This document shows, piece after piece, positions 42,370 to 43,362 of a DNA stretch of 64,000 nucleotides (positions are counted from its first letter, which is position 1; every line of letters starts with the position of its first letter). The DNA lies in assembly GCF_056712565.1 (NCBI RefSeq), contig NZ_CM160072.1; one strand, written 5' to 3'. The notes under the pieces were generated by a model. The model saw only the letters and a list, made by a program, of their open reading frames with translations, did no database searches and was not told the DNA's origin. The translations under genes and the position numbers were made by a program.

Positions 42370-43362
42370 TTATTCGCGGAACAGCGCTTCGATATTCAGC
42401 CCCTGCGTTTGCAGGATTTCGCGCAAACGGCGCAGGCCTTCAACCTGAATCTGGCGAACACGTTCACGGGTGAGGCCAATTTCACGACCTACATCTTCCA
42501 GTGTTGCCGCTTCGTACCCCAGCAAACCGAATCGACGTGCCAGTACTTCACGCTGTTTGGCGTTCAGCTCGAACAGCCATTTGACGATGCTCTGCTTCAT
42601 ATCGTCATCTTGCGTGGTATCTTCCGGACCATTCTCTTTTTCATCGGCCAGGATGTCCAGCAACGCTTTTTCGGAATCACCACCCAGCGGGGTGTCTACC
42701 GAGGTAATGCGCTCGTTAAGACGAAGCATACGGCTGACGTCATCAACTGGCTTATCCAGTTGCTCTGCGATCTCTTCCGCACTTGGTTCGTGGTCCAGCT
42801 TATGGGACAACTCACGTGCGGTTCGCAGGTAAACGTTCAGCTCCTTTACGATGTGAATCGGCAAACGAATAGTACGGGTTTGGTTCATAATCGCCCGTTC
42901 GATCGTCTGGCGAATCCACCAGGTTGCGTATGTTGAGAAGCGGAAACCACGTTCCGGGTCAAACTTCTCTACCGCGCGGATCAGCCCCAGGTTGCCCTCT
43001 TCGATCAGGTCCAGCAACGCCAGACCACGATTGCCATAACGGCGGGCAATTTTTACCACCAGACGCAAGTTACTCTCGATCATCCGGCGGCGAGAGGCGA
43101 CATCTCCACGCAGTGCGCGACGCGCAAAATAAACTTCTTCTTCGGCCGTTAACAGTGGTGAATAACCAATCTCACCAAGGTAAAGCTGAGTCGCGTCCAG
43201 CACACGCTGTGTGGCTCCCTGCGATAACAGTTCCTCTTCGGCCAAATCGTTATCACTGGGTTCCTCTTCTACTAAGGCCTTTTCGTCAAAAACCTCAACT
43301 CCGTTCTCATCAAATTCCGCATCTTCATTTAAATCATGAACTTTCAGCGTATTCTGACTCAT
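42370..43362 (-). CDS. rpoS: RNA polymerase sigma factor sigma-S
   Basis: Start at [11 protein letters not shown] (330 aa); sigma70 regions 2-4 present; codon 33 is GAG (Glu); no internal stop. Confidence 0.95.

Follow-up and report, generated by a model that had tools for sequence, protein, structure and literature searches.

Does an uninterrupted rpoS gene with glutamate at codon 33 mark the surrounding DNA as coming from outside the K-12 laboratory lineages, and does it speak for a working general stress response? Both were claimed, from the letters alone, for a 64,000-nucleotide stretch of Escherichia coli DNA (contig NZ_CM160072.1 of assembly GCF_056712565.1; hereafter 'the window'). Our reading, to which we would attach a probability of about 95%, is that the window is part of a typical phylogroup B2, ST95-like chromosome from an extraintestinal pathogenic E. 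coli, carrying an ordinary wild-type rpoS.

An uninterrupted rpoS gene with glutamate at codon 33

The gene and the codon in question are positioned as follows.

42370..43362, minus strand: rpoS, translated as 330 sense codons followed by TAA
43264..43266, minus strand: rpoS codon 33, GAG (Glu) in the window; CAG in MG1655, TAG in W3110 and CTG in DH1

Read on the minus strand, 42370..43362 encodes 330 residues without an internal stop and closes with TAA. As the initiating ATG occupies 43362..43360, codon 33 falls at 43266..43264; the plus strand reads CTC at 43264..43266, which is GAG, or glutamate, on the coding strand, within the protein context KALV31-E32-E33-E34-P35. The codon is read straight from the letters, not deduced from a statistical pattern, and chance plays no part in it. 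The register is fixed by three alignments: with an NCBIfam model, with RpoS chains of solved structures and with the MG1655 gene. Residues 1-329 match positions 1-329 of the 329 in the NCBIfam equivalog NF004207 at 604.6 bits (cut-off 394), and TIGR02394 is matched at 480.7 bits (cut-off 378.7); residues 1-330 align to the E. coli RpoS chains of solved RNA polymerase holoenzyme structures, with residue 33 the sole difference from the chain in structure 6kj6. Sigma-70 regions 1.2, 2, 3 and 4 are all found uninterrupted, the corresponding Pfam matches being PF00140 (residues 56-88), PF04542 (94-163), PF04539 (174-248) and PF04545 (262-315). Residue 33 itself lies in the acidic N-terminal stretch ahead of region 1.2, outside every conserved sigma domain. 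By every sequence criterion, the predicted product is a member of the RpoS family.

A start at the upstream in-frame ATG at 43398, which would give a 342 aa open reading frame, was rejected, as 43362 is where the RpoS model, the chains of solved structures and the annotations of both UTI89 and MG1655 begin. Three open reading frames on the plus strand, antisense to rpoS and of 208, 146 and 120 aa, were set aside as artefacts of a GC-rich coding region, there being nothing to support them.

Against the MG1655 orthologue (b2741), the alignment is gapless over 993 nt, with identity at 985 of the 993. The eight differences are at nt 97, 163, 357, 462, 573, 732, 819 and 990; only that at nt 97, where the C of K-12 is replaced by G (Q33E), is non-synonymous, the other seven forming the synonymous haplotype T163C, T357G, T462C, T573C, C732T, G819A and G990A. 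The Q33E form is reported to be similarly active (PMC3074542). The two genes agree in length, frame, start, stop and domain layout, as well as in the ribosome-binding site and the proximal 160 nt of the leader. They differ at codon 33, which is CAG (Gln) in MG1655 and GAG (Glu) in the window, and in the 3' flank, where K-12 has 93 bp from rpoS to ygbN and the window has a 2.1-kb insert. The amber allele of W3110, C600, J53, EMG2 and other K-12 strains affects the same position of the same gene, but is a premature TAG stop rather than a sense codon. The original prediction of an rpoS intact over 330 codons with Glu at codon 33 is therefore upheld, both by translation and by the MG1655 alignment. 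It had put forward alignment with reference alleles as the comparison that might expose another register or a disrupting mutation elsewhere in the gene; this left the register unchanged and found no lesion in rpoS.

Codon 33 in complete E. coli genomes

The bases present at nt 97 were counted in a census in which 55-mers centred on this position of rpoS were compared with 5,426 complete E. coli genomes. As megablast demands an exact 28-base word, a match is returned only where the central base is the one queried. The resulting classes were:

nt 97 = G: 5,058 of 5,426 genomes, a class that may hold K-12 stocks with GAG, which are not separable there from other phylogroup A strains; those listed include O157:H7, SMS-3-5 and isolates from humans, pig and dolphin
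nt 97 = C: 227 genomes; those listed include MG1655, BW25113, MC4100, BW2952, DH1, DH5a, TOP10 and EPI300
nt 97 = T: 128 genomes; those listed include W3110, C600, J53, EMG2, NCM3722, TG1, RP437 and the B-strain derivative BLR(DE3)

Together, the three classes comprise 5,413 of the 5,415 genomes with any rpoS match. With the exception of BLR(DE3), which derives from a B strain but has the K-12 TAG allele, all C and T matches listed are K-12-like in name or in size (4.46-4.76 Mb). Codon 33 reads CAG in MG1655, BW25113 and MC4100, and TAG in W3110, C600, J53 and EMG2. In DH1 (NC_017625.1, from 1016212) it is CTG (Leu), although this genome is matched by the C query; 54 K-12-type genomes, including DH1, DH5a and TOP10, have the same one-mismatch pattern against that query.

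Glu-33 is the wild type of the species, not a special allele, and the CAG, TAG and CTG codons of K-12 are departures of laboratory lineages, since G at nt 97 is found in 93% of complete genomes and the published alleles agree. The RpoS of Salmonella is further support for glutamate being ancestral at this position. Alongside the census, the basis for this view is every non-K-12 allele given in two published surveys (PMC2700278, PMC3074542): natural non-K-12 isolates were found to have GAG, with K-12 stocks having TAG, CAG, TAT or GAG (PMC2700278), and Q33E is recorded for 17 of the 22 sequenced ECOR strains that were tabulated (PMC3074542). Because some K-12 stocks are reported with GAG (PMC2700278), Glu-33 is not strictly diagnostic of a non-K-12 strain. 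Hence the statement that K-12 lineages have Gln or an amber codon at this position holds for the K-12 genomes in which CAG and TAG were confirmed, but is incomplete, as GAG and TAT also occur (PMC2700278), and DH1 has CTG.

A probable phylogroup B2 chromosome

Three independent lines of evidence put the window outside K-12 and within phylogroup B2, near ST95: the B2 synonymous haplotype of rpoS, the 2.1-kb insert bearing o183 and o347, and the identity to ST95-type genomes. The seven synonymous changes in rpoS coincide with those listed for ECOR strains whose rpoS fragment is the 3.4-kb B2 form; strains of the phylogroup A type, with a 1.3-kb fragment, differ from the K-12 gene by little beyond C97G (PMC3074542).

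The second fact concerns the DNA beyond the 3' end of rpoS, where the following features are found.

40225..42326, strand not assigned: B2-specific segment of about 2.1 kb, its approximate ends taken from alignment with K-12, replacing around 60 bp of K-12 intergenic DNA between ygbN (o454) and rpoS
40373..41416, minus strand: o347, 347 codons, MBL-fold hydrolase (Pfam, NCBIfam)
41641..42192, plus strand: o183, 183 codons, flavodoxin/WrbA-like (Pfam, NCBIfam)

Both alignment and annotation indicate that o347 and o183 are absent from the K-12 locus. The segment is present in 1,042 of the 5,426 complete genomes, and the examples listed, ATCC 25922, ABU 83972, 536 and O25b:H4-ST131, are known members of B2. 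This arrangement is that of the published o454-nlpD 'pattern III', which was almost exclusive to B2 among 510 strains; its original description, by Culham and Wood, was of an rpoS-mutS polymorphism associated with B2 and with uropathogens (PMC4209514). The open reading frames of pattern III, of exactly 347 and 183 codons, and its insert of about 2.1 kb match those of the window, with only a private frameshift in the neighbouring ygbN differing. The predicted o347 protein scores 165 bits against the VarG family of subclass B1-like metallo-beta-lactamases, below the cut-off of 750.

The third fact is one of sequence identity. A stretch of 1,131 nt comprising rpoS and its flanks is 100% identical to UTI89, S88, APEC O1, NU14, IMT5155 and others, and across two blocks of 25 kb a single base separates the window from ST95-type genomes. 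The rpoS gene is without difference from that of UTI89, S88, APEC O1 and NU14, all ST95-type extraintestinal pathogens of phylogroup B2 (protein WP_000081550.1), and the gene order nlpD-rpoS-o183-o347-ygbN is equal to that of UTI89.

Since Glu-33 alone does not exclude K-12, the alternative to be weighed is that a K-12 derivative has regained GAG by reversion of its amber or Gln codon, in which case Glu-33 would be no sign of a non-K-12 origin. The existence of K-12 strains with GAG at this codon (PMC2700278) lends this some initial credibility, but a reversion at one codon would have to be accompanied by seven further synonymous differences from MG1655 within rpoS, 16 more in the 1,258 nt upstream and a 2.1-kb insert that MG1655 does not have. 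In addition, the iap-cysH interval holds type I-E CRISPR-Cas genes in K-12 but none in the window, and the window is 100% identical to ST95-type genomes of about 5.0-5.2 Mb. The flanks have already refuted this explanation, and we allow it only a vanishingly small chance. The B2 origin is thus preferred, and the non-K-12 background that was originally proposed proves correct, being established more firmly by the flanks and the haplotype than by codon 33.

Differences from UTI89 and K-12 at neighbouring loci

The window differs from UTI89 in three respects: it lacks the IS1 in pphB, has a 1-bp deletion in ygbN and has a different base at one position of nlpD (44365). At this last site both the window and K-12 have T and UTI89 has G, making the change a UTI89-specific variant. 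The pphB gene (33525..34181, plus strand) is an uninterrupted 218 aa open reading frame, whereas that of UTI89 is split by IS1A, an element of 767 bp whose place is taken by 188 bp in the window. As this insertion is absent, the window is not from UTI89 itself.

The deletion in ygbN (o454; open reading frame 38867..40051, plus strand) reduces CC to C at 40030/40031 relative to UTI89, shifting the frame so as to leave a 394 aa open reading frame instead of a 454 aa GntP-family transporter. None of the 5,426 complete genomes was matched by a 53-mer that spans this deletion, and the best matches to a 25-kb block extend over 25,001 bases. Either ygbN has become a pseudogene in this strain alone or the missing base is a sequencing error.

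Between iap (52391..53428) and cysH (53970..54704) there is only a hok/sok module (53553..53847), the sok component of which was detected by Rfam at 112 bits. In K-12 this interval contains a CRISPR array, sokX and about 10 kb of genes from cas2 to cas3. The iap-cysH site of the window has no type I-E CRISPR-Cas locus.

Sequences controlling rpoS expression

The features flanking the coding sequence that bear on its expression are given below.

43425..44564, minus strand: nlpD, directly upstream of rpoS and holding the rpoS promoter and leader (open reading frame list; UTI89 and MG1655 annotation)
43363..43929, minus strand: region matching the long rpoS mRNA leader, inside nlpD (MG1655 alignment)
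43370..43374, minus strand: Shine-Dalgarno sequence AGGAG, 7 nt upstream of the rpoS ATG and identical to that of K-12
42323..42356, minus strand: intrinsic terminator hairpin and T-run of rpoS (GGCTGGC TTTTTTTCTTTT), with 15 pairs, a 4-nt loop and a T tail (terminator scan)

The leader is presumed to be about 567 nt long, the length established in K-12, where the 160 nt preceding the ATG form an inhibitory hairpin and pair with DsrA, RprA and ArcZ. Over the 1,258 nt upstream of rpoS, the window is 99% identical to K-12, with 16 differences. Just three of these (43656, 43545 and 43524) separate the leader region from that of MG1655, all of them third-position changes that are synonymous in nlpD. 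No difference from K-12 occurs in the 160 nt that precede the ATG, or in 300 nt surrounding the expected promoter. A scan of the whole window with Rfam at gathering thresholds found no match at rpoS or its leader, the only hit being sok at 53690..53847. Searching 42150..44100 for the sigma-70 consensus gave one site, inside rpoS, which is no more than is found in shuffled sequence, and the rpoS promoter in nlpD was not picked out.

At the 3' end, the terminator stem is common to the window and K-12, but the tail differs because the junction of the B2 insert (42323..42330) abuts the stem. In K-12 the sequence is GGCTGGCC-TTTTCTGTG, with a short T-tract and a second hairpin that is shared with ygbN; in the window it is GGCTGGC-TTTTTTTCTTTT, the T-run being longer and the second hairpin absent. 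It is conceivable, though we think it highly improbable, that the insert junction could alter rpoS 3'-end formation or mRNA stability, and so add to lineage-specific levels of sigma-S. The altered T-tract and the ygbN frameshift are both most likely inconsequential. The sigma-70 regions are all intact, and so are the promoter region, the final 160 nt of the leader, the ribosome-binding site and the terminator.

Activity of sigma-S in the source strain

The functional general stress response that was attributed to the source strain is no more than plausible from the sequence. The gene would encode a full-length sigma-S that differs from the functional MG1655 protein only at residue 33 (Glu instead of Gln). 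If the pathway operates as it does in K-12, rpoS would be transcribed from the promoter inside nlpD, pairing of Hfq-dependent small RNAs with the leader would unlock translation, and the protein would be turned over by RssB-ClpXP; core RNA polymerase would then be guided by sigma-S to katE, the glg genes and the rest of the general stress regulon.

There are two ways in which an uninterrupted reading frame might coexist with a weak response. One is a cryptic attenuating missense change elsewhere in RpoS, for example at residue 126, 128 or 141. Natural isolates do carry such changes, with G126V/E and R141C known from ECOR strains (PMC3074542) and a change at residue 128 from a further report (PMC5405132). 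However, the protein is identical to that of MG1655 at all 329 residues other than 33, and the alignment having already refuted this explanation, we give it practically no credence. The other is that rpoS is intact, yet the sigma-S response is attenuated or unusually low through rssB, crl, hfq, the level of ppGpp, small RNAs or the altered 3' flank; this we regard as unlikely, though not negligible. In its favour, ECOR strains with an identical RpoS protein range from very low levels of RpoS (ECOR2, ECOR22) to the highest (ECOR69) (PMC3074542), in one variant of the B2 strain CFT073 sigma-S is made yet KatE is not (PMC3573659), and the T-tract after the rpoS terminator is unlike that of K-12; rssB, crl, hfq and the small RNA genes lie outside the 64-kb window. 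Weighing against it, every cis element that could be checked is wild type, and RpoS-dependent resistance to oxidative stress has been shown in CFT073 and suggested for UTI89 (PMC3573659), the rpoS of which is identical to that in the window. We therefore retain the reading of an ordinary wild-type rpoS on a B2 chromosome. The sequenced CFT073 has a 5-bp duplication in rpoS, and laboratory stocks of this strain vary in their rpoS status (PMC3573659); as B2 reference stocks can gain rpoS lesions in the laboratory, a genome sequence speaks only for the clone that was sequenced.

Significance

The description of this allele as intact with Glu-33 is correct, but the allele is ordinary and already known, being identical to the well-studied ST95 allele and lying in the published B2-specific flank. 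Publications from 2000 to 2014 had already described the polymorphism at codon 33, the haplotype of B2 and the 2.1-kb insert next to rpoS, and the finding opens no new question. Its value is one of annotation: the source is not a K-12 laboratory strain, and its rpoS is free of the loss-of-function mutations that are common in culture and occur in some natural isolates. This is useful background for stress-survival or virulence assays with the source strain.
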